In this document: piece after piece, positions 9,419 to 53,856 of the stretch
Layout: each line of letters begins with the position of its first letter
How positions within the stretch are numbered: the first letter of the stretch is position 1
NCBI GenBank assembly: GCA_041666205.1
Contig: JBAYHI010000001.1
Location: 90,894-154,893, forward strand
DNA length: 64,000 nt
Reading direction: 5' to 3'
DNA from: Patescibacteria group bacterium
Lineage (GTDB): Bacteria > Patescibacteriota > Patescibacteriia > UBA9934
Program-made: the position numbers and the translations under genes
The notes under the pieces: generated by a model
Told to the model about the DNA's origin: nothing
Seen by the model: the letters and a program-made list of their open reading frames with translations, nothing else
Databases searched by the model: none

Positions 9419-12400
9419 ATGGCATATAAATTAAACACACTCAAGAGCACGGATTTTGACTCCATTCGCCTTCGTTTGGCCTCACCAGACATTATGCGAT
9501 CTTGGTCGTATGGCGAAATCACAAAGCCAGAGACCATCAACTACCGTACACAAAAGCCAGAAAAGCATGGATTGTTTGCGGAAGAAATCTTTGGGCCAAC
9601 CAAAGATTGGGAATGTTATTGCGGCAAATACAAGAAAATTCGTTATAAAGGCATTATCTGCGATAAATGTGGCGTTGAGGTCACACAAGCGGTTGTTCGC
9701 CGTGAACGCATGGGGCATATTGAACTGGCGTCACCCGTTTCCCATATTTGGTTTTTGCGAGGCGTTCCGTCAAAAATCGGTACGATTCTTGACATGAGCG
9801 TTCAGTCACTCGAAAAAGTCATTTATTTCTCAAGCTTCATCATTACCGATATCGATGAACAAGCACTCGCACAAACCATCGAGCAGGTTGAAGCCGAATA
9901 CAAGTCAAAAAAGAAGATGATTGCCGGGGAAGAGAAGCGAGACATGATGCGTGTTGAAGAGAAATTCAAAGACGAGCCAAAAAAATTGATCGCAGAAAAA
10001 CAGCAAATTGCTGAAATTACGGAAAAGAAGCTCGAGGAATTGGAAGCAGATTTCTTGAGCGTGGATCGTGATCTCAAAGAGATGAAGATCATGAAGATCA
10101 TTCCAGAAACCACTTATCATGATTGGTCGATTCGATTTGGACACATTTTCAACGCGGGAATTGGCGCAGAAGCGGTTTTGAAGCTTCTTGAGCGCATTGA
10201 TGTTCCAAAAACGATCGAATTACTCGATAAAGAAATCGAAACAACGAAATCGCGCACAAAGCACGATCGTATTTTGCGACGTCTCAAACTCCTTCATAGC
10301 TTGGAGCGCACACAAATCAAGCCAGATTGGATGGTCTTGCGCGTGCTTCCAGTGATTCCAGCGGATTTGCGTCCAATGGTGCCACTCGATGGTGGACGAT
10401 TCGCAACATCAGATTTGAACGATTTGTATCGACGCGTCATCAACCGTAATAACCGCTTGAAGCGATTATATGCATTGAACGCGCCGGAAGTCATTACTCG
10501 AAACGAGAAGCGCATGCTTCAAGAAGCGGTTGATGCACTCATCGATAACTCGGCACGCGCGGCAAAAACCGTTGTCGCAGCCACTGGAAAGAAGCGTCAG
10601 CTCAAATCCCTTGCAGACATTTTGAAAGGAAAACAAGGTCGCTTCCGTCAGAACCTTCTTGGAAAACGCATCGACTATTCAGGGCGATCGGTGATTGTGG
10701 TTGGACCTCACTTGCACATTGATGAATGCGGACTTCCAAAGAAAATGGCACTTGAACTCTTTAAGCCATTCGTTATTTCCAAGCTTATTGCACGGGAATA
10801 CGTTCACAATATTCGCTCAGCCAACCGATTTATTGATTCCGATCGTCCAGAAGTTTGGGATATTTTGGAAGAAGTAACGGCTGATTCATTTGTGCTCTTG
10901 AACCGCGCTCCAACTCTTCACCGTTTGGGTATTCAAGCATTCCGTCCACTCCTCATTGAAGGAAAAGCTATTCAAGTCCACCCACTCGTTTGTGACGCGT
11001 ATAACGCTGACTTCGATGGAGACCAAATGGCCGTGCACGTTCCACTCACAGAAGAGGCTCGACGCGAAGCAAAAGAAATCATGCTCTCTATTCGCAACCT
11101 TTTGAAGCCATCTCACGGTGGGCCGGTTGCAACTCCAGGAAAAGATATTGCATGGGCAAGCTACTTCTTGACCATGGTCTTTACGCAGCCAGATGAAAAG
11201 AATTTGAAATCCTACGGATCTCCTGAGGAAGCAATGTATGCATGCGAAATGGGTAAAATCAAACTCCAGGATTGGATTCGTGTGCGACGCAATGGGGAAC
11301 TCCTCATTACAACTGTCGGACGTTTGACTGTGAATGCATTTTTCCCAGAAAAAATCGGGTTCATCAATGATGTTATTGGGAAAAAGCAACTCGCAAACAT
11401 TGTGCGCGACATTTTGGAGTTCTACGGACAGGAAAAAACAGCCCGAATTCTTGATGAAATCAAAGACTTAGGGTTTGCGAGCGCCACAAAGTTCGGATTT
11501 TCATGGGGCATGGGCGAACTTCCAGATATCAAAGAGAAAAAGGCGATTATTGAAGAAGGAGATCGAAAAGTACAGGAAGTGGAAAGCTTCTTTGCGCAAG
11601 GGTTGCTCACGCAAGGGGAGCGCCACGTACAAATCATCAAGATTTGGACTGATGTAAAAGATCAAATTGAGGAACTTTCAAAGAAATCGTTGCCTCTTGG
11701 AAGCTCAGCGCAAACCATGATTGAATCCGGTGCACGTGGTGCATGGGGTCAGCTCACACAAATGGTTGGAATGATCGGAATGAAAGCATCTCCATCGGGC
11801 GACATTATCGAGCTTCCAGTGAAATCTTCCTTCAAAGACGGCGTTGATGTGCTTGAATTCTTCATCTCGTCTCACGGTATTCGCAAAGGTCTTACCGATA
11901 CGGCTCTTAAGACTGCAAACGCCGGGTACCTCACGCGCCGTTTGGTTGATGTTTCACAAGATGTCACGGTCCATGATGAAGATTGCCAAGACGAAGAGGG
12001 CGTTGTCATGACACATAAAGAATCCGAAGAAATTGGGGAGCCACTCCTTGTTCGCATTCTTGGTCGCTACACACTCGATGATATCGTCATGCCGGGCGGA
12101 CGCAAGGTGATTGTAAAAGCAGGCGAACTCATCAAAGAAGATCATGTTCGTGAACTCAAAACTGCCAAGAAAGAACTTGATTCTGCACACGTTCGATCGG
12201 TCATGACTTGTAAAGCACGTCGAGGAATCTGTCAGAAGTGCTATGGCTATGATTTGGCCTACAATAAACTCGTGAAACTCGGTACATCGGTTGGAATCAT
12301 CGCAGCTCAATCCATCGGGGAGCCTGGTACTCAGCTCACCATGCGTACATTCCACACCGGTGGTGTTGCAGGAAAAGACATTACGCAAGGGTTGCCACGT

Positions 12401-13447
12401 GTTGAAGAGCTCTTTGAAGCTCGTATGCCAAAGCGTAAGGCCATCATGACTGAGGTTTCGGGTAAAGTTGAGGTTGAAGAAGCAGAGCGATCTGTTGAGC
12501 AAGCAGGAACAGGAAAACAGATTACCGATACCCGCCCAGGCCAGAAAATCGTCCGCATTCGCTATACTGCAACCGATGAGCGAACCTATTTGATCGGACG
12601 AGGCGGAAAAATCACTGTAAAAGAAGGCGAGAAGGTGTCGAAAGGCGATGTGCTCGGGGCACTTTCCACTGGCGAAAAGATTTTGTGCGAAAATGAAGGC
12701 GTTGTTTCCTCGGTTGCGAAAACCAAACTCGTTGTCGTATTTGAAGGACAAAAGATCCGTGAATACGTCATTCCACAAGGTTATTCCTTGTACGTGAAAA
12801 CGGGTGACGAAGTTCGCGCAGGTGATGTGCTCACGGAAGGTCACCTTGATTTGCAAGCCTTGTACAAGTACCAGGGCAAAGAAGCAGTAAAACGCTATCT
12901 CTCAAAGGAAATCTTGGCTATTTACGCGTCACAAGGCCAGAAACTCAACAATAAGCACATTGAAATTATTATTCGCCAGATGTTTAGTCGTGTTCGTATC
13001 ACGATTCCAGGCGACACCGACTTCTTGCCTGGCGAAGTGATTGAAAAGACAACACTCTATCAGGTTATTGATGGCTTGAAGAAAGGTCAAAAAGCCCCAG
13101 AGTACGAGGAATTGTTCCTCGGGATCACAAAAGTTTCTCTTTCAACGGAATCCTGGCTCTCAGCAGCTTCGTTCCAAGAGACTGCACGCGTTCTTATTAA
13201 CGCCGCAGTCACCGGTAAAGTTGATACGCTTTCGGGCCTTAAGGAAAACGTTATCATTGGCCGCTTGATTCCAGCGGGAACGGGGTTCAATGCCGTACTC
13301 GATGATGGAAGCGACGAAGAACAGGAAGACGAACTGATTCCAAAAGAAGCAGTCGCTGAAATCGAAAAAGAAATCAAAGAAGAAGGACCAGGCATGGGCA
13401 CGGTCGTGGTAGAAGAAGAGGTTGAAGAAATGAACGCCAAAGAATAA
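9419..13447 (+). CDS. rpoC: DNA-directed RNA polymerase subunit beta prime
   Basis: 1342 aa with the zinc-binding CxxC...CxxC N-terminus, the NADFDGD catalytic motif and the trigger loop. Confidence 0.97.
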   Translation: MAYKLNTLKSTDFDSIRLRLASPDIMRSWSYGEITKPETINYRTQKPEKHGLFAEEIFGPTKDWECYCGKYKKIRYKGIICDKCGVEVTQAVVRRERMGHIELASPVSHIWFLRGVPSKIGTILDMSVQSLEKVIYFSSFIITDIDEQALAQTIEQVEAEYKSKKKMIAGEEKRDMMRVEEKFKDEPKKLIAEKQQIAEITEKKLEELEADFLSVDRDLKEMKIMKIIPETTYHDWSIRFGHIFNAGIGAEAVLKLLERIDVPKTIELLDKEIETTKSRTKHDRILRRLKLLHSLERTQIKPDWMVLRVLPVIPADLRPMVPLDGGRFATSDLNDLYRRVINRNNRLKRLYALNAPEVITRNEKRMLQEAVDALIDNSARAAKTVVAATGKKRQLKSLADILKGKQGRFRQNLLGKRIDYSGRSVIVVGPHLHIDECGLPKKMALELFKPFVISKLIAREYVHNIRSANRFIDSDRPEVWDILEEVTADSFVLLNRAPTLHRLGIQAFRPLLIEGKAIQVHPLVCDAYNADFDGDQMAVHVPLTEEARREAKEIMLSIRNLLKPSHGGPVATPGKDIAWASYFLTMVFTQPDEKNLKSYGSPEEAMYACEMGKIKLQDWIRVRRNGELLITTVGRLTVNAFFPEKIGFINDVIGKKQLANIVRDILEFYGQEKTARILDEIKDLGFASATKFGFSWGMGELPDIKEKKAIIEEGDRKVQEVESFFAQGLLTQGERHVQIIKIWTDVKDQIEELSKKSLPLGSSAQTMIESGARGAWGQLTQMVGMIGMKASPSGDIIELPVKSSFKDGVDVLEFFISSHGIRKGLTDTALKTANAGYLTRRLVDVSQDVTVHDEDCQDEEGVVMTHKESEEIGEPLLVRILGRYTLDDIVMPGGRKVIVKAGELIKEDHVRELKTAKKELDSAHVRSVMTCKARRGICQKCYGYDLAYNKLVKLGTSVGIIAAQSIGEPGTQLTMRTFHTGGVAGKDITQGLPRVEELFEARMPKRKAIMTEVSGKVEVEEAERSVEQAGTGKQITDTRPGQKIVRIRYTATDERTYLIGRGGKITVKEGEKVSKGDVLGALSTGEKILCENEGVVSSVAKTKLVVVFEGQKIREYVIPQGYSLYVKTGDEVRAGDVLTEGHLDLQALYKYQGKEAVKRYLSKEILAIYASQGQKLNNKHIEIIIRQMFSRVRITIPGDTDFLPGEVIEKTTLYQVIDGLKKGQKAPEYEELFLGITKVSLSTESWLSAASFQETARVLINAAVTGKVDTLSGLKENVIIGRLIPAGTGFNAVLDDGSDEEQEDELIPKEAVAEIEKEIKEEGPGMGTVVVEEEVEEMNAKE

Positions 13448-17964: not shown

Positions 17965-18900
17965 TTGCAGTATATGGGGCAGAAATCTTGTGAGAAATTT
18001 CCAATTGAACCAATTCTCAAGGAATATTTTGATTCCTGGTCGCCAATTTTTCCAGTGGACGCTGGGCTCGTGAATTGCGTTTACACGTTCGAGGCAGGGG
18101 AGGAAAAATACGTACTCCGGGTTTATGCGCCAACGGCGTATATTGAGCGTTCAAAGGATTCACTTCTGGCAGAGCTAGATGTGATGGCATTGTTTGGAAG
18201 TACTGGGGTCCCGGTGCAAGAACCGATTCCAAATCGTTCTGGCGAGCTTGTAACAGCGGGGCAGGGGTATTTTGCAATTGTGTTCCAATATATCGAAGGC
18301 ACGCATGCATACGGCGCGCTTCTTCCAGTGCATTTTCGTGAAATGGGGGGTCTGATGGCAGATATGCATCGCGCTGCAATTGAACTGCGTCCAGCATGTG
18401 AAAAGAAGTGGGATGGGAAGGATTTTTGGGAGTATGTATGGGGATTGGGAGACTTAGAACGTGATGATTTAGGAGAGCTCCTGCTTGCGTCAAAAAAAGA
18501 TAAGGAGATTTTGGAGACGGCGAATCATTATTGTATCCACGGAGATTTTCATTTTGGAAATGTCTTGTTCAAGGGCAATACACTTGCGGCACTTTTGGAT
18601 TTTGATAATTATCGTTTGGGGGATGCAGCTGACGATATCGCACGATTTTTCGTGGCTGAACTTTCTTATGCAGAGCCAAATGTCTATTCGCAGAGCCAGG
18701 GAAAAATACAGGCTTTTTTCGAAGAATATCAGATTCATCGACCAATGGATCCTGCTGAGGTTCAGCTCCTTTTTGCCTACCTTCGCCTTCATGAGCTTTA
18801 CCAGACGATTCGTCTTGGTCACGAGAAGCCCGAGAAACTTCCTTATTTCCACGAGCAAATGCATGACCTTTGGGAATGGGTGAAAGAGATTTGTCATTAA
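17965..18900 (+). CDS. aminoglycoside/choline-kinase-type phosphotransferase (APH family)
   Basis: Brenner motif HGDFHFGNVLF and LLDFDN (the catalytic loop and DxD) of the APH/ChoK kinase fold. Confidence 0.65.
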   Translation: MQYMGQKSCEKFPIEPILKEYFDSWSPIFPVDAGLVNCVYTFEAGEEKYVLRVYAPTAYIERSKDSLLAELDVMALFGSTGVPVQEPIPNRSGELVTAGQGYFAIVFQYIEGTHAYGALLPVHFREMGGLMADMHRAAIELRPACEKKWDGKDFWEYVWGLGDLERDDLGELLLASKKDKEILETANHYCIHGDFHFGNVLFKGNTLAALLDFDNYRLGDAADDIARFFVAELSYAEPNVYSQSQGKIQAFFEEYQIHRPMDPAEVQLLFAYLRLHELYQTIRLGHEKPEKLPYFHEQMHDLWEWVKEICH

Positions 18901-28081: not shown

Positions 28082-28123
28082 AGGAAAATTTTATTGCTTT
28101 CAGTATAGCAAAATTTCCCTCAT

Positions 28124-28337
28124 AAAAAAATTCGACGCCCGGCAGGGTGCCGGGCGGGTACGGGGGAGACACGACGGTTGAGACGGCGGGCTAGGTGAAC
28201 CCTGACGGGTGCATCCGACCTCCAAGTCCCTCTTGCGAGGGGTGAATCGACGAGCGGCGATCAGGTGGCGGCGACGCTGGTGGTGTAGGCCAAGGACACC
28301 TCGCGGGGCGCGAATGCACATGCTTCAGCGCATGAGC
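28124..28337 (-). ncRNA. candidate ~214-nt GC-rich structured RNA (promoter-to-terminator unit)
   Basis: Starts about 7 nt after the -10 of the promoter at 28344-28372 and ends at the hairpin GCCCGGCACCCTGCCGGGC plus U7 (plus-strand 28124-28158). No ORF with a credible SD spans it. It lies directly upstream of the surface-protein gene. Confidence 0.4.
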
Positions 28338-28343
28338 GCGAAA

Positions 28344-28372
28344 ATAATATGCCTTGCGGAAAGAGATGTCAA
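28344..28372 (-). promoter_or_regulatory. consensus-like sigma70 promoter (TTGACA-17-TATTAT)
   Basis: On the minus strand, TTGACA is the reverse complement of 28367-28372 and TATTAT of 28344-28349, in an AT-rich patch inside GC-rich DNA. Confidence 0.5.
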
Positions 28373-28499
28373 TAAAAAGAAGTGCCCGCCGGAGTGCCGG
28401 CGAGCGGGGAGCGGACAGGGGTCCGCTGAGAACGGTGTTACAGTTGCTGGTTGGTCAGCCCGCCACGTCCTCACGATCAAGCGGACGCGGCGGGCGGAG

Positions 28500-28616
28500 C
28501 TAGGACCCGGCGTTGAACACCGCGCCGGAGTCGTTCTGGACCTGGTTGTCGCCGTCGAAGTCGATGTTCAGACAGCGCTTGGACGCCGCGTTGGGCGGCG
28601 CGCGCGAGATCAGCAT
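28500..28616 (-). CDS. candidate 38-aa peptide with strong SD (MLISRAPPNAASKRCLNIDFDGDNQVQNDSGAVFNAGS)
   Basis: GGAGGT lies 7 nt upstream of the ATG at 28616. The peptide sits about 105 nt downstream of the promoter at 28729-28757 and is followed by a hairpin at about 28376-28402. Confidence 0.3.
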   Translation of the reverse strand: MLISRAPPNAASKRCLNIDFDGDNQVQNDSGAVFNAGS

Positions 28617-28728
28617 CTCGGCACCTCCATCAGGGGCGGGGATTTGGAGATCGAACGTTGTTTTTGCCGGCTCTACACCGTTCTGTCCCGGTTCATGCCG
28701 GGCGAGTTCGGTTTGAGCAAGCGCCAAA

Positions 28729-28757
28729 ATATAACCACTTTTTGTGGTTTTTGTCAA
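28729..28757 (-). promoter_or_regulatory. consensus-like sigma70 promoter (TTGACA-17-TTATAT) just downstream of the smc stop
   Basis: On the minus strand, TTGACA is the reverse complement of 28752-28757 and TTATAT of 28729-28734. Confidence 0.5.
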
Positions 28758-36458: not shown

Positions 36459-36548
36459 ATTGCTCTTATTTTACACTAAGTTTCGCAAAGTGAGCAGGGG
36501 AAAAGTGTGCGCAGTGGAAAAATAGAGCTTTTTCGTTTATGCTATGGC

Positions 36549-37598
36549 CATATGGCACAACCTTTTTCTTCCGAAAACACGACGCGTTGGTTCTTTTTAA
36601 TCATCGCGGTTATTGTTTTGTACCTTTTTTGGAGCATTATTTCGCCCTACGCGATGGCACTCGCAACTGCAATTATTTTTGCCATGATTTTTGCGCCGGT
36701 CGAGAAATGGATTCGAAAATATGCGCGTTCGCCAAAGCTATCCTCGTTTTTGGTTGTGCTGGGTGTCTGTGTGGTTGTGCTCGCTCCGCTTTCTGGCATT
36801 GCAATTTTAATTGCCGAGCAATCATCCGACATTGTGCAGATGTCTATTGCTGATGGTGGATGGCTTTCTACGTTTGACCCGGCAAAAAATCCGCTGTTCT
36901 TGATGCTTCCGGGTGTTGTGCAAGAGCAGGTGATGGCGCTCAATTTTGTGGAGATTGGGAAAAGCGCTGCGCAATGGGTCTTTGAAAATCTCGGAAACGT
37001 TTTCTCCCGCGGCACGAGCTTCATTATTTCGTTTGGTATTTTCCTCATGAGTTTCTATTTCTTCCTCACTGAACGCGAGGGGATTTACAAGCAGGCGCTC
37101 GAACTCAGTCCTTTTAAAAATAAAATCGACGATGGGATTATTCGCAGAATCATTGGCACCGTGCGCTCGATTGTTTTGGGTGCGCTAATCATTGCGTTGG
37201 TGCAAGCAACGCTTGGAAGTATTGGAATGACGATTTTTGGCGTGCCGGGTGCCTTGCTTTGGGGAGCGCTTTTGATTGTTGCTTCGCAAGTGCCTGTGGT
37301 TGGAACAAGCGCGATTATGATTCCCGCAATTGCGTATTTGGCACTCACAGGGCACCCACTCAATGCGCTTGGACTTTTGATTTGGGCCGTGATTGCAGTA
37401 GGATCGATTGATAATTTGCTTTCGCCGTTTATTGTTGGATCGCAAACCAAGATGCCAACAATCTTTGTACTGATTTCGATTCTTGGCGGATTGCAGTTCT
37501 TCGGGCCAATTGGATTTATTTTAGGGCCGACGGTTTTGGCCGGTGTATTTGTGATCATCGATTTGTACAAGAGCGGAATTTTGGCGAGCGCAAAATAG
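36549..37598 (+). CDS. AI-2E family transporter (PerM/YhhT-like permease)
   Basis: Eight-TM topology with the characteristic central loop and C-terminal GGLQFFGPIGFILGPTVLA. The start was placed at MAQPF (the ORF-track start is 36507). Confidence 0.7.
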   Translation, partial: HMAQPFSSENTTRWFFLIIAVIVLYLFWSIISPYAMALATAIIFAMIFAPVEKWIRKYARSPKLSSFLVVLGVCVVVLAPLSGIAILIAEQSSDIVQMSIADGGWLSTFDPAKNPLFLMLPGVVQEQVMALNFVEIGKSAAQWVFENLGNVFSRGTSFIISFGIFLMSFYFFLTEREGIYKQALELSPFKNKIDDGIIRRIIGTVRSIVLGALIIALVQATLGSIGMTIFGVPGALLWGALLIVASQVPVVGTSAIMIPAIAYLALTGHPLNALGLLIWAVIAVGSIDNLLSPFIVGSQTKMPTIFVLISILGGLQFFGPIGFILGPTVLAGVFVIIDLYKSGILASAK

Positions 37599-37612
37599 AA
37601 ATTCATGATTTT

Positions 37613-37651
37613 CCGTAGGGGCAGGTCGCGACCTGCCCGTACGAAAACGAT
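37613..37651. repeat. family-1 GC-rich palindromic element (CCGTAGGGGCAGGTCGCGACCTGCCCGTACG)
   Basis: A near-perfect 15-bp inverted repeat at the left boundary of GC-rich island D. Confidence 0.65.
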
Positions 37652-37739
37652 TTTCGTTTTCAAAAAAAAAACGACCCCTCCGGCCGAGACGTGGTGTGGC
37701 GGAGGGGCAGGGGGAGGGGCGCCCCGGGAGTGGGCGGAG

Positions 37740-38270
37740 CTACATGCCGGCGTTGCCCAGGGGGCCGAAGGGAATCGGATCGGTCGCGAAGGCTGGCGGG
37801 CGAAGCTTGAGCAGGGCGGAGCACAGTGATCGCTCTTCGGTGAGTACCTCGGTTCTTCTCTTCTCCATCGTCTGGATGGCGAGGTCGATGAGTGCCTGGA
37901 TCTTGTTGCCGAAGTACCACGAGGTTTCTCCGATCTTCATCACGAAGACGATCTCGTGGTTGTTGTCTCGCTCTGCGACGTAGATGAACTTTTCCTCGTC
38001 CCGTAGACCGCCACGGTAATACGTGACGATCTGTTCGGGCATCACAAGCCTCGCGATGACGGTGAATTTGAAGTAGGTCTTGTCCACGTCAAATTCAGTG
38101 GGGAACATCTCGCTGAGAGGCAGAGACACAGGTCCTCCAATATCCAGCAATTGCCGGAACGGTGGTGAACGGTAGGCGGAAATGGGGAATTGGTCAAGGT
38201 CTTGAGGTGCGTGAACAAAAACTCCCCATATTCGCACCGTCTTTTCAATTCTTGGAGAGAGCCAAGTCAT
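37740..38270 (-). CDS. hypothetical protein D1 (176 aa), GC-rich island D
   Basis: A long ORF with GC-rich codon usage, last gene of a co-oriented run; no recognisable motif. Confidence 0.45.
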   Translation of the reverse strand: MTWLSPRIEKTVRIWGVFVHAPQDLDQFPISAYRSPPFRQLLDIGGPVSLPLSEMFPTEFDVDKTYFKFTVIARLVMPEQIVTYYRGGLRDEEKFIYVAERDNNHEIVFVMKIGETSWYFGNKIQALIDLAIQTMEKRRTEVLTEERSLCSALLKLRPPAFATDPIPFGPLGNAGM

Positions 38271-38331
38271 GAATAAACGGCACGAATGTGGGGAGTTTGA
38301 TTTTGCAGGGAAGCGAGCGCTCGAAGAATGG

Positions 38332-38610
38332 TTAGTTCTCGAGCACTCGCCAGAAGATCGCGTCGACGATCTCGGTGACCGGACCGCCCTCGTATTCGGA
38401 GAGGTGGTCGATTTCCGAGAGAAGGCGGAATTCGATCTCCGCGCCGTTTTCCTCGATGAGGATTAGGCACGAGAGACTAATCACCTCGCGATCGTCGAGC
38501 AGATACCCTGCGCCGCAAGCGCAGGAATGCCGGTACTCGTTCCCGTACTGCTTGGGGAGCCGAAGCTCCCCGTGGCAAAACGGGCAAACGAACGGGGGCC
38601 ACTCGGGCAT
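38332..38610 (-). CDS. hypothetical small zinc-ribbon protein D2 (about 92 aa)
   Basis: ATG at 38610 preceded by GGAGGATCCC (SD); CPFCHGE...HSCACG gives a CxxC...CxC candidate zinc ribbon. Confidence 0.5.
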   Translation of the reverse strand: MPEWPPFVCPFCHGELRLPKQYGNEYRHSCACGAGYLLDDREVISLSCLILIEENGAEIEFRLLSEIDHLSEYEGGPVTEIVDAIFWRVLEN

Positions 38611-38752
38611 GGGATCCTCCGAATTTTTAACTCTCAAGACCTACGATTGCTCGCGGGTCTATTCGAGTCCCGGATGTTTAGTACATCCGGGGAGACGACC
38701 TCCAAAGTTGAAGGATTTTGCCACAGATCGCTGTGGCCCGGTTTCGGTGGGG

Positions 38753-39298
38753 CTAGAAGTCGTTGTCGCCGTCTTCCTCCTCGACCGTGTGGCGGTGGAT
38801 GACCACGACCTCGTCGGGATCGCATCCCTCGCCACACTCCACCGGGGTTTCTTCCTGCTCCTCAGTGAGCGGGAATTCCCTTTGGATGCGTTCGGAGTCG
38901 ATGCCAGCGGCCTCGGCGCGGTCTCGCGCGGAGGAGATCGCATGCCACGGGCCGGCGTCGATCTCGACCTCGAGTTGCATGCTGGAATTTTGGGGCTTGC
39001 ACCACACCAACCGTGCTTTCGACGATCCGCCCCCGTATTCGACATAGTAGTATCCCGGACCCTTCCACACGAATTCGATGGGGGCAGGGCCGTGCTGGGG
39101 GTCGAAGTTATCCTCGTCGGCCTCAGCTGCTTCGAACGCCGTCTCGACGGCGACGAGGATCGAGCACGGGTCCACCTCGGTGAGCATGAAGTGCTTGGGG
39201 GCGAGGCCCCCGAAGCGACCGGCCGCGGCCTTGAATGCCACAACCGCTTCAGTGAGCTGCTCGACGCCATAAACCACCCGCAGAATTTTCTGGAACAT
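38753..39298 (-). CDS. hypothetical acidic protein D3 (181 aa)
   Basis: ATG at 39298 preceded by AAGGAGAT (SD); the acidic C-terminus contains ECGEGCDPDE. The longer overlapping Ser/Arg-rich ORFs on this and the other strand look like GC-driven artifacts. Confidence 0.5.
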   Translation of the reverse strand: MFQKILRVVYGVEQLTEAVVAFKAAAGRFGGLAPKHFMLTEVDPCSILVAVETAFEAAEADEDNFDPQHGPAPIEFVWKGPGYYYVEYGGGSSKARLVWCKPQNSSMQLEVEIDAGPWHAISSARDRAEAAGIDSERIQREFPLTEEQEETPVECGEGCDPDEVVVIHRHTVEEEDGDNDF

Positions 39299-39397
39299 CT
39301 CGATCTCCTTCGAACTCCCATTTTTTTATCCGCTGGGATAGCGGGTTGCTGGATCTCTTGCCTTTGCTCGCTCCGACCCCTCTGGTCGGTTTACAGG

Positions 39398-39451
39398 CAT
39401 CGGCTTGAAAGTCCCACCGCAATCCTTGATTGAATCAAGGACTCTGGTGGG
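39398..39451 (-). promoter_or_regulatory. conserved intergenic element copy 1 (CATYGGCTTGAAAGTCCCAYC...TCTGGTGGG) containing the perfect 17-bp palindrome CCTTGATTGAATCAAGG
   Basis: It shares both ends with the copy at 39986-40042. The palindrome at 39424-39441 sits about 100 nt upstream of D3. Confidence 0.45.
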
Positions 39452-39492
39452 CGGGAAGACGATCGGTCTGCCTTCCCAAGAAGTTGTGCGAC

Positions 39493-39924
39493 TCAGTTGC
39501 AGTCGCTATCGTTCCAGTCGACGCGACCATCACAGTCGTCGTCGATTTGGTTACTGCAATACTCACTTTCTGGACCACCCGGGCGGGTGGTCGCATCGTT
39601 GTCGTTGCAGTCGTCGTCGTTGGCGACGTACCCGATCGGCTGCTCGCACGACTCGAAATCGTGTCGCTGGTCCCCGAAGTCGTCGTTGTCCAAATCGCGG
39701 AACCAGGTTTCTGCGTCGACCGCGTCGTTTTCGTCGATGTTGTCGTCGCAGTCGTTGTCGATTCCGTCGCAGTACTCGTCCGCGTCGGGGTAGACGTCGA
39801 CATCCTCGTCGTCGCAGTCGCCGTCGATCACTGCGTACCCGTCACCGTCGAAATCGGCATATTCCGGGGGCAGTTCCGTGCAAGCGGACAGAGCGAGGAA
39901 CAGGGCGATGATGTTACGGTACAT
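39493..39924 (-). CDS. secreted lipoprotein D4 with Asp/Cys-rich calcium-binding-type repeats (thrombospondin-type-3-like DxDxDGxxDxxD / DCDD motifs)
   Basis: Signal peptide with lipobox LSAC, then repeated DGDGYAVIDGDCDDEDVD, DGIDNDCDDNIDEND and NDDDCNDND blocks. Confidence 0.55.
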   Translation of the reverse strand: MYRNIIALFLALSACTELPPEYADFDGDGYAVIDGDCDDEDVDVYPDADEYCDGIDNDCDDNIDENDAVDAETWFRDLDNDDFGDQRHDFESCEQPIGYVANDDDCNDNDATTRPGGPESEYCSNQIDDDCDGRVDWNDSDCN

Positions 39925-39985
39925 GGCTTCTCCTGAAAGCGGATCTTTCGCTTCTGCTCATTCCGACCGATATGGCCGAAGAAAG

Positions 39986-40042
39986 CATTGGCTTGAAAGT
40001 CCCATCACATGACTCGAACATGCGTTCAAGTAATCTGGTGGG
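39986..40042 (-). promoter_or_regulatory. conserved intergenic element copy 2, with the imperfect palindrome TTGAACGCATGTTCGA
   Basis: Same flanks as copy 1 (GGCTTGAAAGTCCCA and TCTGGTGGG), about 60 nt upstream of D4. Confidence 0.45.
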
Positions 40043-40121
40043 TCCCCGACAGTCGTAGTGAGTCGGGAACACGTTCGCCATTTCACGTAGCCTTGAAACG
40101 GTGATAAAGAGGCTTGAGCTT

Positions 40122-40409
40122 CTAGAGCTCGATCGCGTAGGTCGAGAACGCGTTCCGCATCCCGAGGTTGAAGTCCTCCGGGACCGGGACGCGGGGCAGG
40201 TTGGTCTGGGCCTCGATGACCCGCACCTTCTCCTCACCCCAGACGTGGATGTAGAGCTCGGGCGTCTGGGTCTCGTAGAGCCGCTCGACGCGGGCGCGTT
40301 CTGCTGCCTCGTCGGCCGTTGGCCTGCGGTACACGCTGTGACACGGCTCATTGCCATTGAAGAATTGGATGACGTAGATGGTCTTGGGGGTCTGGGTCGT
40401 CTCTTCCAC
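40122..40409 (-). CDS. hypothetical protein D5 (95 aa, GTG start)
   Basis: GTG at 40409 preceded by AGGAGAGACC (SD); first gene after the upstream promoter/RNA unit. Confidence 0.4.
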   Translation of the reverse strand: MEETTQTPKTIYVIQFFNGNEPCHSVYRRPTADEAAERARVERLYETQTPELYIHVWGEEKVRVIEAQTNLPRVPVPEDFNLGMRNAFSTYAIEL

Positions 40410-40561
40410 GGTCTCTCCTGGCCGTCCAATGCATGGATCGGCTGAAGGGTCTTCCGACTACGAATCAAGAGCGGAGCGCTCAAGACCCAGTCGGAGAACT
40501 GAACGCTCCATTTTGCGAGCGTCGTCGATGCGATGAATGAATCATCGGTTCGCGACGCTTA

Positions 40562-40777
40562 CAAAAAACAGAGCTTTTCCTTATTCTTTGAAAGAAAGAG
40601 GAAAAACTCTGTTTTTCGAGTATCAAACTCGAAATGACCAACTGGGAATTGCTTCCCTTATTGATCTGCCTTGTCACCCCAGGCTCGGGCTCTCTCTTAG
40701 GACTAATGGATTCTACCGGACGTTTCGTGTTTCTTTTAAGCAGTGAATCAACCGTAACTTTCTCTCATCTCAACCAC
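40562..40777 (-). ncRNA. candidate ~216-nt RNA or regulated leader upstream of island D
   Basis: Starts about 7 nt after the TATAGT of the promoter at 40784-40812 and ends in a 15-bp-stem intrinsic terminator (AACAGAGUUUUUCCU...AGGAAAAGCUCUGUU plus U6, plus-strand 40561-40625). It contains the GNRA-capped hairpin GGGAAGCAAUUCCC and no ORF with an SD. Confidence 0.4.
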
Positions 40778-40783
40778 GCATAT

Positions 40784-40812
40784 ACTATACCATAATTTGG
40801 AGCTTTTGTCAA
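40784..40812 (-). promoter_or_regulatory. consensus-like sigma70 promoter (TTGACA-17-TATAGT) between tRNA-Glu and island D
   Basis: On the minus strand, TTGACA is the reverse complement of 40807-40812 and TATAGT of 40784-40789; AT-rich UP-like sequence lies upstream. Confidence 0.5.
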
Positions 40813-40975
40813 CCGTAGAATTTGGCTAAAAGCCTTATTTTAAGCCAAATTTTTAGGTTTTTGGCTAACTTTTGAGGGCGAAAAAGGGCCGGGAATCCGA
40901 ACCCCTATCAATCCGGGTTCGATTCCAGATACGAACAATCCCTCATAGCTCCAGCTTTGCTGGAGCGACGAGGGA

Positions 40976-41050
40976 TGGTGACCCTACCGGGAATCGAACC
41001 CGGATTGCAGGCTTGAAAAGCCCGCGTCCTAACCGTTAGACGATAGGGCC
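40976..41050 (-). tRNA. tRNA-Glu (anticodon TTC)
   Basis: Reverse complement GGCCCTATCGTCTAACGGTTAGGACGCGGGC-TTTTCAA-GCCTG...CCGGGTTCGATTCCCGG-TAGGGTC-A-CCA. Confidence 0.8.
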
Positions 41051-41158
41051 GAAATGCGGGAGTAGAATATGATAATTTTTGGTTTCTGTCAATAAATCCT
41101 TCATAAACGGCAAAACCCTCCTTCGTCCCGTCAAACGGGACTCCGGAGGGCGAGAGGG

Positions 41159-42583
41159 CTAGCGCGAAGTGACGAGGTCATTCCGGCGGTAGACGCGGAA
41201 CGCGTCGTTGTCGAACGACTCCATGGTGTAGTGATCCTGGAGCCACTCGGCGAACTCCGGCCAGGCCTTGAACTTATCGTATCCGCGAGGATCGCTCGCT
41301 TTCGCGGTTACGAAGTAGTCCGGTGGACGCAGTTGCACTTCCGAAAAGAATCGGTCGCGCATGCCACGTCTTGTTTTGGAATCCGATCCCATGAAGAGAC
41401 ACAGGTCGTACTGCATCCCTGTCGCAGGAAGTCTTCCTGTGCGGAACAGCGCGTTTGGCACGTCATCGACGAATGCCAACGGCTGGATCCGCGCGTCGCG
41501 TGGGAGTTTCTCGATCACTCCCATGAGAGACGGCGTTGCGGGATACGCTTCCTCAAGGGCGCGCACATGCGCTTCGTCGCTTGGCACGAAGTACATGACG
41601 GGCCAGGTGAGCGCAAGCCCCACCGCGATCATTCTCACCCCAATCCATTCGAGGCGTTGCGCTGTTTCCATGAGCGCGAGCGATCCGAATGCGACCAGAG
41701 GAATGAAGTGGTAGGGGAACCCTTTATTTTGCGCCACCACGTGGACGATTCCGAGAAGTGCCATGGACCACATCACGTTATGGCGTGATGGCGACCGAAT
41801 GAGCGCGAGCGTACTGACGAGCAGCACGAGCGCCATGAAGGTGAACCGCATCCACATGGGGGTGGACGGCATGAAGCCGTAGGAATGATCCCCGGCGTAG
41901 AACGGCGTCAGCTCAGTCATGGTCCACACGAAGTCGGGCATCACCTGGATTTTTTCAATCCATGCGATGGTGACAACCCAGGGGATGGCAATTCCTGGCA
42001 GCACCCACCACCGTTTTGCTTGTTTGGTCGTGAGCGCAAAGATGGCAAGCGGAACTGCAAACAGGATGGCGTTCACCTTCACGGTTGACGCGTATCCAAT
42101 CAGCAGCCCCGCCATTACCATGCTCGTTTTTCCACGTTTGGCGAAGATGAGCGTAGCGGCGCCAAGGAAGCAGCAGACCACCACGAGCTCGCGCTGCATG
42201 GTGCCGTTGGCTCCAAGAAACATGAGGTGGAACCCGACAAAGCACAGTGCGGGCGCCAGTCGGAAGTTATTTCCGGCCCCAAGTCTCCACAGAAGCCAGG
42301 CGCAGAGCGCAAGCACGAGTTGATCCGCGATGCGGAAACACTCGTCCGCCAGACTCACGGTGAGAAGTGCCGCGAAATAGAGGATGGTCCCGGGCTGGTT
42401 GAACTCGATGAGGACCTTGTAGGGCGTCATGCCCTGCATGATCCACCAAGTGGAACAGCGGAGTTTCTGCGTATCCGGTCCAATACTCATGTGAATGCTT
42501 GCGATGGAGATGGCCCCGAGGAGCCCAATCACCAACGCTGCAAGAATCGTCCACCAATTCAGAAACCGCTTATTGGAATTCAC
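41159..42583 (-). CDS. polytopic membrane glycosyltransferase (GT-C fold, ArnT/PMT-like family 39 type)
   Basis: 474 aa with about 11 TM segments, an early loop carrying an acidic pair (LADE) and a large C-terminal soluble domain. GC-rich codon usage. This is a family-level guess only. Confidence 0.5.
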   Translation of the reverse strand: MNSNKRFLNWWTILAALVIGLLGAISIASIHMSIGPDTQKLRCSTWWIMQGMTPYKVLIEFNQPGTILYFAALLTVSLADECFRIADQLVLALCAWLLWRLGAGNNFRLAPALCFVGFHLMFLGANGTMQRELVVVCCFLGAATLIFAKRGKTSMVMAGLLIGYASTVKVNAILFAVPLAIFALTTKQAKRWWVLPGIAIPWVVTIAWIEKIQVMPDFVWTMTELTPFYAGDHSYGFMPSTPMWMRFTFMALVLLVSTLALIRSPSRHNVMWSMALLGIVHVVAQNKGFPYHFIPLVAFGSLALMETAQRLEWIGVRMIAVGLALTWPVMYFVPSDEAHVRALEEAYPATPSLMGVIEKLPRDARIQPLAFVDDVPNALFRTGRLPATGMQYDLCLFMGSDSKTRRGMRDRFFSEVQLRPPDYFVTAKASDPRGYDKFKAWPEFAEWLQDHYTMESFDNDAFRVYRRNDLVTSR

Positions 42584-42662
42584 GGGAAACCTCGATGTAA
42601 AGGTGCGATGAACTAACGATCCTAGCGCAAAAAATTGAAAAAGTCAATCATTTGCCTAAAAC

Positions 42663-42689
42663 AAAACGCTCCCGGCAAGGGAGCGTTTT
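42663..42689. terminator. bidirectional intrinsic terminator after the SPFH gene
   Basis: AAAACGCTCCC-ggcaa-GGGAGCGTTTT. Confidence 0.65.
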
Positions 42690-42700
42690 GATGGAATGGA

Positions 42701-43450
42701 TTATTGATTCTTTTTGAAACCTTCCAAAGCGTGCAAGATTTCAATTGGCATCGCAAAGATGATTGTATTGGATGCATCGCTTGAAACGTCATTGATGGTG
42801 GAAAGCGTTCGCAAGTGAAGGGCACCAGGTGCGCTCGAAAGCGTGGTGGCAGCTTGGCGGAGGTTTTCCGCAGCTTGCACTTCCCCTTGAGCTTTAATGA
42901 CGACAGCACGTCGTTCACGTTCAGCTTCGGCTTGTTTTCCGATGGTTCGTTTCATTTCTTCTGGCAAGTTGATGTCTTTGAGTTCCACGTTTTCTACACG
43001 GATACCCCATGGATCTGTGAGACTATCAACAATCTCTTTGATCTTGAGGGATGCACTTTCTCGGTTTGAGAGAAGTTCATCGAGCTCCATTGCTCCAACC
43101 ACGTTTCGCATGGTGGTTTGCGCTAGCTGGCTTACCGCATAGGTGAAGTTTTCAACTTCAATCACGGCTTTGGAAGCGTCGCTTACTTTGTAGTAAATAA
43201 CCGCATTGATACGAGCGGAAACGTTGTCTTTGGTAATCGCTTCCTGATCGGGTACGTCAACCGCTTTGATACGAATATCAACACGCGCCATGCTTTGAAT
43301 AACAGGAAAAACAATGTGCCAACCAGGTTCAAGCACTTTTGTGAATTTTCCAAGCTGGAATTTCACCCCGCGCTGATATTGGTTGACCTGCTTAATGCTT
43401 GCAAGAACAAGGACGAGGGCAAAGGTTGCAATGAAATAAAGGAATTCCAT
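42701..43450 (-). CDS. SPFH/band-7 (stomatin/prohibitin-like) protein
   Basis: N-terminal TM anchor, an SPFH core, and the coiled-coil ERERRAVVIKAQGE region. Confidence 0.85.
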   Translation of the reverse strand: MEFLYFIATFALVLVLASIKQVNQYQRGVKFQLGKFTKVLEPGWHIVFPVIQSMARVDIRIKAVDVPDQEAITKDNVSARINAVIYYKVSDASKAVIEVENFTYAVSQLAQTTMRNVVGAMELDELLSNRESASLKIKEIVDSLTDPWGIRVENVELKDINLPEEMKRTIGKQAEAERERRAVVIKAQGEVQAAENLRQAATTLSSAPGALHLRTLSTINDVSSDASNTIIFAMPIEILHALEGFKKNQ

Positions 43451-43507
43451 AGATTTGCCGTTTATTGGCTTATGAAAACGCTAGCAGAAAAATGGGAAAA
43501 AGTAAAG

Positions 43508-43558: not shown

Positions 43559-43679
43559 ACGATTCGCCGTAGGGACGTTGCCTGCAACGTAAAATCCTGT
43601 GTCATTGCGAGGACGACCGAAGGGAGGACGAAGCAATCTACTGGCGGAGAGTAAGAATTTTCGCTATTATTGACCGAGT

Positions 43680-52599: not shown

Positions 52600-53856
52600 T
52601 TAGGCTTCTGCGACTGGGGTTTCTTCTGGTTTTGTTTCGACAATTGCCTCGGCAATCGGTGGCGCGATTTCTTCCGATTTTTCTTCCTGAGCGGGCAGGT
52701 CGCGACCTGCCCCTACGGCGACGTCCTCTTTTGTTTCCTCTGGTTTTGCGTCCAGCGCCTTGATTGAAAGACCAAGACGATGTTCTTGTGGTTCAATCGA
52801 GACGATTTTGAATTTTCGTACTTCACCGATCTTTGCGACCGTGGAGAAATCTGTGACCGGTTTGCTTGAAAGTTCTGACACGTGGGCAAGGCCGTGAATG
52901 TCGCGGTCAAGCTCCACGAAAAGTCCGAATGGATTGTACTTGAGGACTTTTCCTTCAACCACATCGCCAATCTGATAGCGTGACCCTACGCCGGCCCATG
53001 GATCTTCCATAAGTTTTTTCATGGAAAGGAAGATCTTGCTTCCTTCAATGCCCACGATTTGTGCTTTTACGAGCTGACCGACTTTCAAGATGTCGCGTGG
53101 GTGATCAATACGCTGCCAAGCGATTTCTGAAATGTGTACGAGTCCTTCGAGAGGCGATGCGTTCTCCCCCTGTGGGTGGAATTTTACGAATGCACCAAAG
53201 TCTGCAAGGGCGGTGACTTCACCTTCAATCACATCGCCTGTTTTGATTTGAGAAATAACAGCATGTTGCTCGTCTTCCCAAACGGCTTTTTCAGAGACAA
53301 TGAGCTTCTCTTCGGTTTCATTGAGGTCAAGCACTTTTACGCGCATGGTGGTGCCAATGAAGGAATTGAGCTTATCGAGAATTTTTTGTTTGTCGCCACC
53401 GGTGACACGTGGATAATTTTCTGGAGCAAGTTGTGAGACTGGCAAAAATCCATTGATGTGGCCGAGTTTTACAATGAGCCCACCTTTATTTGCGTCAATG
53501 ACTTTTGCGTCAACCGTCATATTGACCTGCAAGTTGTCGCGCAAGGTCTGCCAGGATTTCTTATTGCCGGCGTAGAGGAATGAAAGTTCCATTTCGCCAT
53601 TTTCGTTTTCCAAATTGATTACGGTTGCTTCTACTTCGGATCCGATTTTCAAATCCGTATAGGTTCCGCTGTCGGTAAACAATTCTTTTCCGCGTACCAC
53701 GCCCGTGGTGAGCCCACCAACGTCAATACGAACTTCACGCCCTTTTGTGGAAAGCACGCGTCCTTTAATAAGATCCCCAACTTTTGGGATATTTAAAAAC
53801 TCGCCTTGGCTCAAAAGCTCGGCAAGTTCATTCTGTTTTGCGATTTCTTCTGTCAT
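52600..53856 (-). CDS. rpsA: 30S ribosomal protein S1
   Basis: Four S1 (OB) repeats and an acidic C-terminal tail; a family-1 palindrome lies in frame inside the tail (see 52688-52722). Confidence 0.85.
   Translation of the reverse strand: MTEEIAKQNELAELLSQGEFLNIPKVGDLIKGRVLSTKGREVRIDVGGLTTGVVRGKELFTDSGTYTDLKIGSEVEATVINLENENGEMELSFLYAGNKKSWQTLRDNLQVNMTVDAKVIDANKGGLIVKLGHINGFLPVSQLAPENYPRVTGGDKQKILDKLNSFIGTTMRVKVLDLNETEEKLIVSEKAVWEDEQHAVISQIKTGDVIEGEVTALADFGAFVKFHPQGENASPLEGLVHISEIAWQRIDHPRDILKVGQLVKAQIVGIEGSKIFLSMKKLMEDPWAGVGSRYQIGDVVEGKVLKYNPFGLFVELDRDIHGLAHVSELSSKPVTDFSTVAKIGEVRKFKIVSIEPQEHRLGLSIKALDAKPEETKEDVAVGAGRDLPAQEEKSEEIAPPIAEAIVETKPEETPVAEA
52688..52722. repeat. family-1 GC-rich palindromic element embedded in frame in the rpsA 3' coding region
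   Basis: GAGCGGGCAGGTCGCGACCTGCCCCTACGGCGACG encodes ...VAVGAGRDLPAQ... within the S1 C-terminal tail. Confidence 0.6.

Follow-up and report, generated by a model that had tools for sequence, protein, structure and literature searches.

The genomes of Patescibacteria are tiny, and these bacteria are believed to rely on other cells; how they acquire genes is poorly understood. Sequences that recur between genes are known from chromosomal integron arrays, such as the Vibrio superintegron with its Vibrio cholerae repeats (VCR/attC), and from clusters of attC sites lacking integron integrases (CALINs), which need no IntI. Phage T7 early mRNA carries RNase III hairpins between its cistrons, Cluster K mycobacteriophages have intergenic start-associated sequence and extended start-associated sequence motifs (SAS/ESAS), and pneumococcal BOX elements as well as repetitive extragenic palindromes and bacterial interspersed mosaic elements (REP/BIME) are modular intergenic repeats that fold in RNA. 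The general features of genomic islands associated with tRNA genes have also been reviewed (PMC2704930). Here we describe a locus that resembles each of these systems in part. It lies in a metagenome-assembled genome (MAG) of Patescibacteria (Uhrbacteria), within a 64,000-nucleotide (nt) stretch of DNA that we call the window and whose positions serve as coordinates wherever no related locus is named. An AI-2E permease gene (36507-37598, plus strand) and a tRNA-Glu(UUC) gene (41050-40976, minus strand) enclose five minus-strand open reading frames (ORFs), which we number g1 to g5 from the tRNA side (NCBI locus tags of the region, WCT24_00655-00685). On balance, we consider it probable that this block is a horizontally acquired accessory array, held in a recombination-prone AI-2E/tRNA-Glu slot and joined by structured modules.

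The block is like tRNA-associated genomic islands in that it is tRNA-adjacent, has atypical GC content and codon usage, carries accessory or orphan cargo and varies in content between relatives. Unlike such islands, it has no integrase, no tRNA 3'-end repeats and no mobility genes, and GC-rich DNA is found on both sides of the tRNA. In 400-nt intervals, GC content was 0.53-0.63 over 37600-40600 compared with ~0.47 on either side and a mean of 0.482 for the whole 64 kb. GC content at third codon positions (GC3) reached 0.76-0.90 in g1-g5 (GC1, 0.55-0.68; GC2, 0.35-0.41), which corresponds to z = 5.1-7.6 relative to the backbone (0.477±0.055, range 0.33-0.64; n=32 genes). The GC excess resides in the third codon positions of precisely these five frames. 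Alternative-frame ORFs that overlap them lack such codon periodicity, and g1-g5 are therefore real coding frames, not chance GC-rich ORFs, and their sequences were shaped by evolution at high GC content. An earlier sequence-only reading of this DNA had described five co-oriented ORFs (40409-37740) that are GC-richer than the backbone and carry good Shine-Dalgarno sites. Both descriptions hold: the comparison with flanking genes that it had proposed shows the block to be compositionally foreign, and a Shine-Dalgarno sequence of the type AGGAG(A/G) lies 3-5 nt ahead of every start. A sharp compositional switch in DNA from a MAG could also arise from an assembly or binning chimera. We find this hardly credible, considering that backbone lies on both sides of the block in a single 288-kb contig, that the related genome L004 (see below) has the same spacer modules at the same locus, and that both island junctions are 100% identical in three independent assemblies (ENA, Logan and JGI). 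The source samples are from groundwater (ERZ27249449, SRR6484324 and JGI 3300037810).

Related loci were found via similarity of the AI-2E protein, whose homologues carry the name Candidatus Uhrbacteria. Five of them were compared with the window: L004 (contig JBAZUI010000006.1; AI-2E, 74%), L018 (JBPLBH010000008.1; 55%), L005 (CAYFME010000008.1; 51%), L022 (51%) and L020. In all five, the AI-2E gene is followed by different DNA. In L004, two low-GC coiled-coil genes are followed by more than 9 kb of minus-strand ORFs with GC 0.55-0.72 and GC3 0.70-0.94, which encode a 221-amino-acid (aa) lipoprotein and then proteins of 124, 175, 813, 499 and 119 aa, none with a Pfam match. The L018 slot holds genes with GC3 0.60-0.83, a DEAD-box helicase gene among them, in a backbone with GC3 of ~0.2; the contrast is extreme at L018 11000-17000, where four such genes stand right downstream of AI-2E. 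In L005, a low-GC Fic gene separates AI-2E from tRNA-Glu; in L022, the interval up to tRNA-Glu is 4.7 kb long and contains genes for TrmB regulators as well as small ORFs. Cargo that is compositionally foreign to its host was clearest in L004, L018 and L005. Because the content differs in every relative examined, the AI-2E-to-tRNA-Glu interval is a variable slot, conserved in position and repeatedly holding foreign cargo, and the tRNA-Glu gene (ARAGORN; Rfam tRNA, 62.9 bits) is its conserved right-hand anchor. The search for the same five-gene block beside tRNA-Glu in relatives, another check that had been suggested, thus found different cargo in each. We note that the L005 record is titled 'uncultured Gammaproteobacteria bacterium', yet its AI-2E and tRNA-Glu arrangement is as in the window and in the Uhrbacteria locus L022; the taxonomic label of L005 may be wrong.

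An alternative reading of the composition is that the block is a native, fast-evolving, lineage-specific locus of vertically inherited genes whose GC content rose in place, GC-biased gene conversion at a recombination hot spot being one possible cause. GC content in the clade varies widely (0.33-0.57), the divergence of the intergenic spacers between the window and L004 (74-81% identity) about equals the backbone divergence between these two genomes, and the GC-rich lipoprotein of L004 has a 31%-identical relative in L005, a higher-GC Uhrbacteria-like contig. However, the 30-60-point jump in GC3 is confined to the ORFs, with the spacers of the island at GC 0.50-0.55, and the genomes have entirely different genes in the slot. 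A GC3 jump of that size far exceeds reported gene-conversion effects. We therefore regard a native origin as quite improbable.

The most distinctive feature of the block, which the sequence-only reading did not include, is a set of conserved structured intergenic spacers. Four spacer modules are common to the window and L004 by BLASTN (74-81% identity), and the promoter-leader region upstream of g1 is shared as well. In L004, these modules separate entirely different GC-rich ORFans. The modules are shared and the proteins are not: phmmer searches with the window's six GC-rich proteins (g1-g5 and a 474-aa neighbour beyond the tRNA) against all ORFs of the related loci found nothing at E<=1. Such spacers between unrelated orphan genes are a new, testable feature. 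All four spacers fold far better than shuffled sequences (z -3.75 to -5.65). Spacer 1 (39943-40069, minus strand) consists of P1 (40069-40043), P2 (40042-40000) and P3 (39999-39943), and spacer 2 (39355-39477, minus strand) repeats this arrangement with P1 at 39477-39452, P2 at 39451-39412 and P3 at 39411-39355. The third, module B, is a multi-hairpin element upstream of g4 (38631-38694, minus strand; fold z -4.9) with an 81%-identical counterpart at L004 12732-12795. The fourth, module C, lies between g4 and g5 (38219-38298, minus strand), where a 37-bp hairpin is followed by the U-run UUUUUGUU (fold z -5.65); its counterpart at L004 13890-13960 is also 81% identical. P2 is present in two of the four window spacers, modules B and C being without it. 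Like BOX and REP/BIME, these are short, conserved and strongly folded intergenic modules that occur in different order combinations. Unlike those elements, they are confined to the array and not scattered, and the 64-kb window has no further copy of a module beyond it.

The P2 hairpin (consensus CCCACC(A/G)GA...TG(C/T)G(G/A)TGGGA) was recovered in six copies, two in the window and four in L004, all of them between ORFs and all on the coding strand. Across these copies, 93.8% of positions in the 16 pairs of the stem were paired, and five pairs showed compensatory double changes. None of 500 shuffles reached the observed score, and slid controls were 34-50% paired. The sense fold was more stable than the antisense fold in 6/6 copies, by 3.4-11.5 kcal/mol, through G-U pairs on the sense strand, which suggests a role of P2 in RNA. 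A small P1 hairpin stands ahead of each P2 with sequences that are unrelated between copies, and P3, a conserved extended hairpin, follows P2 in three copies. In L004, a 231-nt module occurs at two sites with 94% identity and extends from the stop codon of two unrelated ORFs to the exact 3' end of P2, so that P2 appears as a modular junction mark. The conserved hairpins of ~16-20 bp with an internal loop, placed between genes on the coding strand, are like the RNase III hairpins of T7 and the SAS/ESAS motifs. Unlike in those systems, there are no phage genes at the block, the host is a Patescibacterium, and cleavage would here be a matter of inference. P2 was also considered as a kink-turn (K-turn) and as a terminator, and both were rejected, the former for lack of tandem G-A pairs and the latter for lack of a U-run.

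One P2 copy in L004 has a small palindromic repeat within the loop, and its stem is left intact. A ~40-nt repeat (GTCATTGCGAGGACGACC..GGGAGGACGAAGCAATC) is 95% identical between window 43601-43640 and L004 11039-11078, which are different places, and a third copy (L004 ~18065-18115) sits in the loop of one P2. This repeat looks like a miniature mobile palindromic element.

These properties invite comparison with integrons. Like integron arrays and CALINs, the block has co-oriented orphan ORFs, repeated imperfect palindromes, one repeat joining different genes and an upstream promoter. It differs from them in having no R''/R' cores and no IntI, in its sense-favoured hairpin, and in its several spacer types, which include true terminators. 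An integron-like capture would mean that P2 and its flanks form a non-canonical attC-type site used by an as yet unidentified recombinase, each ORF with its spacer being a cassette. Mostly orphan, unrelated ORFs in one orientation, with imperfect palindromes between them that have conserved ends and a variable centre, would agree with this, as would a similarity break exactly at the hairpin 3' end and the preceding stop codon, and the recurrence of these modules between different genes in the two genomes. However, no attC core pair (RYYYAAC...GTTRRRY) occurs on either strand of 37600-40830, on which ground canonical attC sites were rejected, and no integron integrase (IntI) or tyrosine recombinase is annotated in the covered parts of the window (given below). 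In addition, G-U pairs favour the sense-strand folds, in contrast to attC, which is active as the bottom strand, and P2 is absent from two of the four spacers, namely B and C. Capture of this kind is, in our judgement, decidedly unlikely.

A promoter and tRNA-Glu had been predicted on the right-hand side of the block, and both were found. The promoter is of the sigma-70 type, TTGACA-17-(TG)TATAGT (40784-40812, minus strand), with 11/12 consensus positions and an extended TG, and its counterpart in L004 (TTGACA-17-TATTCT) lies upstream of a homologous leader. It would drive a leader or small RNA of ~220 nt (40555-40777, minus strand) that is conserved with L004. At the 3' end of the leader, a conserved hairpin UUCGAGUUUnnUACUCGAA (40633-40613) is followed by a 26-bp terminator hairpin (40616-40564) with U6, and the stretch of similarity to L004 ends immediately past this terminator, CTGTTTTTTGTAA. 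The 5' untranslated region (UTR) of g1 follows (40410-40554, minus strand) and is hairpin-rich with GC 0.57. No Rfam 15 family was found for the leader or the spacers in a scan of 36500-43500, in which only the tRNA reached the gathering score; further hits up to E=1 fell far below threshold, belonged to eukaryotic microRNA models and a Pseudomonas leader model, and were taken as chance.

Module C is, by its hairpin and U-run, predicted to be a strong intrinsic terminator after g4, and in L004 it closes the upstream gene string right ahead of the promoter-leader module. Because the leader terminator (40616-40558) and module C interrupt the block, a simple five-gene operon seems unlikely. The idea of a single five-gene cassette transcribed from its own promoter is accordingly not upheld. 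The leader RNA and its promoter are both present as had been proposed, but the leader ends in its own conserved intrinsic terminator. Nor is the AT-rich promoter-leader region plain backbone, since it is a conserved module that stands mid-array in L004 and travels with such arrays.

Of the five products, only that of g2 has an assignable character. The g2 gene (39493-39924, minus strand) encodes a 143-aa lipoprotein with a lipobox (LSAC) and MopE-type Asp/Cys metal-binding repeats. It matched Pfam PF11617 (MopE) in two stretches (E 1.7e-14; 54.2 bits against a gathering cut-off of 27), had a weak NCBIfam match to an acidic double-disulfide repeat, and is named 'MopE-related protein' by NCBI. 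MopE, the copper-binding surface protein of Methylococcus capsulatus (PDB 2VOV), was matched in PDB at a marginal level (E 0.09). Like the MopE/PF11617 proteins, g2 has the Asp/Cys motif and predicted surface anchoring; unlike MopE, it is 143 aa long with little beyond the repeats, and the similarity is marginal. We infer that g2 is likely a membrane-anchored, surface-exposed lipoprotein with predicted metal-binding repeats. The surface or secreted function that had been suggested for the block is thus plausible for g2, and the other four have no such assignment.

The remaining products are probably small cytoplasmic proteins. The g1 gene (40122-40409, minus strand) encodes 95 aa from a GTG start with Shine-Dalgarno AGGAGA and GC3 of 0.90, and its product matches no family. 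The 181-aa acidic protein of g3 (38753-39298, minus strand), which contains ECGEGCDPDE, is a strict orphan that retrieved only itself among 5.8 billion clustered proteins. The 92-aa product of g4 (38332-38610, minus strand) has an N-terminal CxxC...CxC zinc ribbon (CPFC...CAC) with a sub-threshold Pfam similarity to the Lar zinc ribbon (17.5 bits; cut-off 28.6), and a PDB sequence search found no relative. The g5 product, also a strict orphan, retrieved only itself in an exhaustive HMMER search over 1.84 billion representatives. The ORF of g5 (minus strand) extends to 38270 (176 aa), but its first 47 codons are not GC3-rich, lowering GC3 from 0.78 to 0.69, and for this reason g5 most likely starts at GTG 38150 (37740-38150; 136 aa). 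This GTG has the Shine-Dalgarno sequence GGAGGA, and the ORF stretch upstream of it overlaps the conserved hairpin of module C; the NCBI annotation gives 129 aa. Apart from this shorter g5, the predicted product list stood as described, including the lengths of g1, g3 and g4, the motifs of g3 and g4 and the lipoprotein repeats now assigned to PF11617.

None of g1, g3, g4 and g5 exceeded a Pfam threshold, their PHROGs and PADLOC searches were empty, and tblastn against 50,697 phage and 72,556 plasmid records retrieved nothing for them. Their single NCBIfam match was far below threshold (g5, 12.3 bits; cut-off 93). PDB sequence searches gave insignificant matches save for the marginal MopE match of g2, and single-sequence AlphaFold2 models of g3 (predicted local distance difference test, pLDDT, 33) and g5 (pLDDT 39.5) were unusable for fold comparison. 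With g2 as PF11617 the only family result, the earlier statement that no product belongs to a recognised housekeeping family is confirmed.

The main rival to our reading is a decayed integrative element, that is, a tRNA-targeting island or prophage remnant that has lost its integrase and att sites, with the genes as leftover cargo and the spacers as its signals. The tRNA-adjacent position and foreign GC of the block fit this, small acidic orphans and a zinc-ribbon protein are typical mobile-element cargo, and the islands of L004 and L018 share a distant protein family, that of L018 also having the DEAD-box helicase. An inverted partial copy of the tRNA-Glu T-arm lies beside the tRNA (40909-40931, plus strand; 18 nt exact at 40909-40926, and 21/23 overall against 40985-41007) and counts in favour as well. 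This copy is 45 nt past the tRNA 3' end, encloses a trailer hairpin (40935-40979) and is not the expected att direct repeat; the tRNA-Glu of L005 is without it. Against a decayed element, no integrase or recombinase was found among the annotated genes at 1-24 kb and 28.7-~56 kb of the window (~10 kb each side of the block), and no such Pfam domain was found in g1-g5 or the 474-aa neighbour. The 26-nt 3' end of tRNA-Glu has no second copy at <=3 mismatches. No real match came from PHROGs, from tblastn against the phage and plasmid records or from scans of viral contigs, which likewise gives no sign of a prophage. Separately, we tried GGGACTTTCAAGCC, which follows P2, as a displaced att fragment of the tRNA-Glu anticodon arm and rejected it (12/14 positions, with no extension and no tRNA 3'-end repeat). 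Taken together, we think a decayed integrative element unlikely.

The proposal of tRNA-directed integration at tRNA-Glu is therefore not upheld, there being neither an integrase in the covered ~10-kb flanks nor a direct repeat of the tRNA 3' end. That of a conflict system found no support either: PHROGs was empty, and PADLOC found no anti-phage defence match for the six proteins at E<=0.1. What remains of the proposed acquired accessory module is its foreign GC, its orphan genes and the variable slot, without the operon, tRNA-integration and conflict-system elements. All the same, every feature that the sequence-only reading had described was found in its place. A search of the literature on integrons, genomic islands or GC-rich islands in Patescibacteria or Uhrbacteria found nothing relevant.

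At its right-hand side, the GC-rich DNA of the island begins ~420 nt downstream of the tRNA-Glu 3' end, with the boundary from AT-rich to GC-rich DNA at ~40555. The left boundary is marked by the intrinsic terminator of g5, a GC hairpin with T10 (37662-37700, minus strand). The palindromic element that had been reported on this side is present in the backbone between the convergent g5 and AI-2E genes (37610-37647). It is GC-rich with a GGGCAGGTCGCGACCTGCCC core and has a second copy at 52688-52718, also between convergent gene ends, where it probably either terminates both genes as a common bidirectional terminator or represents a REP-like element of the backbone. The tRNA side was less of a limit than had been thought: g1-g5 are GC-rich, and a GC-rich gene also lies beyond the tRNA. 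This gene (41159-42583, minus strand; GC3 0.73) encodes a 474-aa multi-pass membrane protein that matches no family. It is equipped with a promoter-like site and a terminator of its own, the related loci contain no relative, and it appears to be a second foreign gene beside this tRNA-Glu.

Two further GC-rich stretches were observed. In the window, ~650 nt with GC 0.60-0.675 (28100-28750) lie between the gene of an 824-aa surface-repeat protein and an SMC gene; there is no convincing ORF, and Rfam at E<=1 gave one insignificant match. A structured RNA not yet described, or the decayed remains of a GC-rich insertion, could account for this stretch. In L004, the low-GC genes are separated from module B by ~600 nt with GC ~0.5 and many hairpins (12100-12730). 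This stretch contains no codon-periodic ORF and has no Rfam match; a decayed gene and a non-coding RNA are both conceivable. The L004 genes for the 499-aa and 813-aa proteins have a common 5' UTR and start context.

How might such an array work? If we begin from what is observed (foreign composition, orphan status, variability of the slot, conservation and covariation of the modules, and the strand bias of their folds), g1-g5 would have evolved in a much higher-GC genome and be orphans of the lineage. They would be strung together by the promoter with its ~220-nt leader and terminator, by P1-P2-P3 before g2 and before g3, by module B before g4 and by module C after g4. Transcription of g1-g4 from the promoter at 40812 would take place only upon read-through of the leader terminator, so that expression may be conditional, by attenuation. 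P2 and P3 could serve as intercistronic hairpins at which the mRNA is processed or stabilised, much as at RNase III sites, and g5 would be expressed separately or via read-through. Since the spacers are the only sequences shared between the arrays, they may also be the homology joints at which genes swap. Attenuation, RNA processing at P2/P3, recombination at the modules and any cellular role of the products are put forward here from the sequence, and should be read as such.

Several observations weigh against an acquired, module-joined array and need to be considered with caution. The modules are carried by only two genomes, the window and L004. A metagenome scan with the 19-mer GGGACTTTCAAGCCRATGC gave 10 loci, all seed-only matches in unrelated coding DNA and attributable to chance. 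Viral contigs were scanned with four patterns, namely the 19-mer, a pattern for P2, the hairpin of the leader and a 16-mer from module B, and each scan was either empty or yielded chance matches. The copies of the window sequence in ENA, Logan and JGI are all identical and show no polymorphism. No donor of the GC-rich genes was identified among the matches obtained. The conserved spacers could be ordinary regulatory sequences, vertically inherited in an old locus with fast turnover. Finally, the 813-aa protein of L004 and a 524-aa protein of L018 are 27% identical over 225 aa (E 2e-4, pairwise), and this relatedness hints at shared island ancestry, not independent captures. These two GC-rich orphan proteins (encoded at L004 15536-17965, coordinates that give 809 aa, and L018 11236-12810) also share an ...IRWF... 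motif and basic C-terminal tails.

Nonetheless, we continue to favour a horizontally acquired array in the AI-2E/tRNA-Glu slot. A bolder form of this idea is that Uhrbacteria possess a hitherto undescribed gene-cassette platform, in which dedicated structured linkers allow unrelated high-GC genes of foreign origin to be captured and shuffled within one fixed slot. The linkers (P1-P2-P3, B, C and the promoter-leader) would then be both expression or processing signals and recombination sites, integron-like but without IntI or attC. We offer this tentatively and with a low expectation that it will prove correct.

The locus is a defined chromosomal slot where compositionally foreign orphan genes have been taken up repeatedly, including at least one for a probable surface lipoprotein, and reusable folded linkers wire such genes into an array for expression. 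If the linkers are not signals, what is left is an ordinary genomic island without an integrase. If they are recombination or processing signals, they would make it possible to search uncultivated bacteria for accessory-gene arrays and would open a route into how such bacteria vary their surface and interaction proteins.

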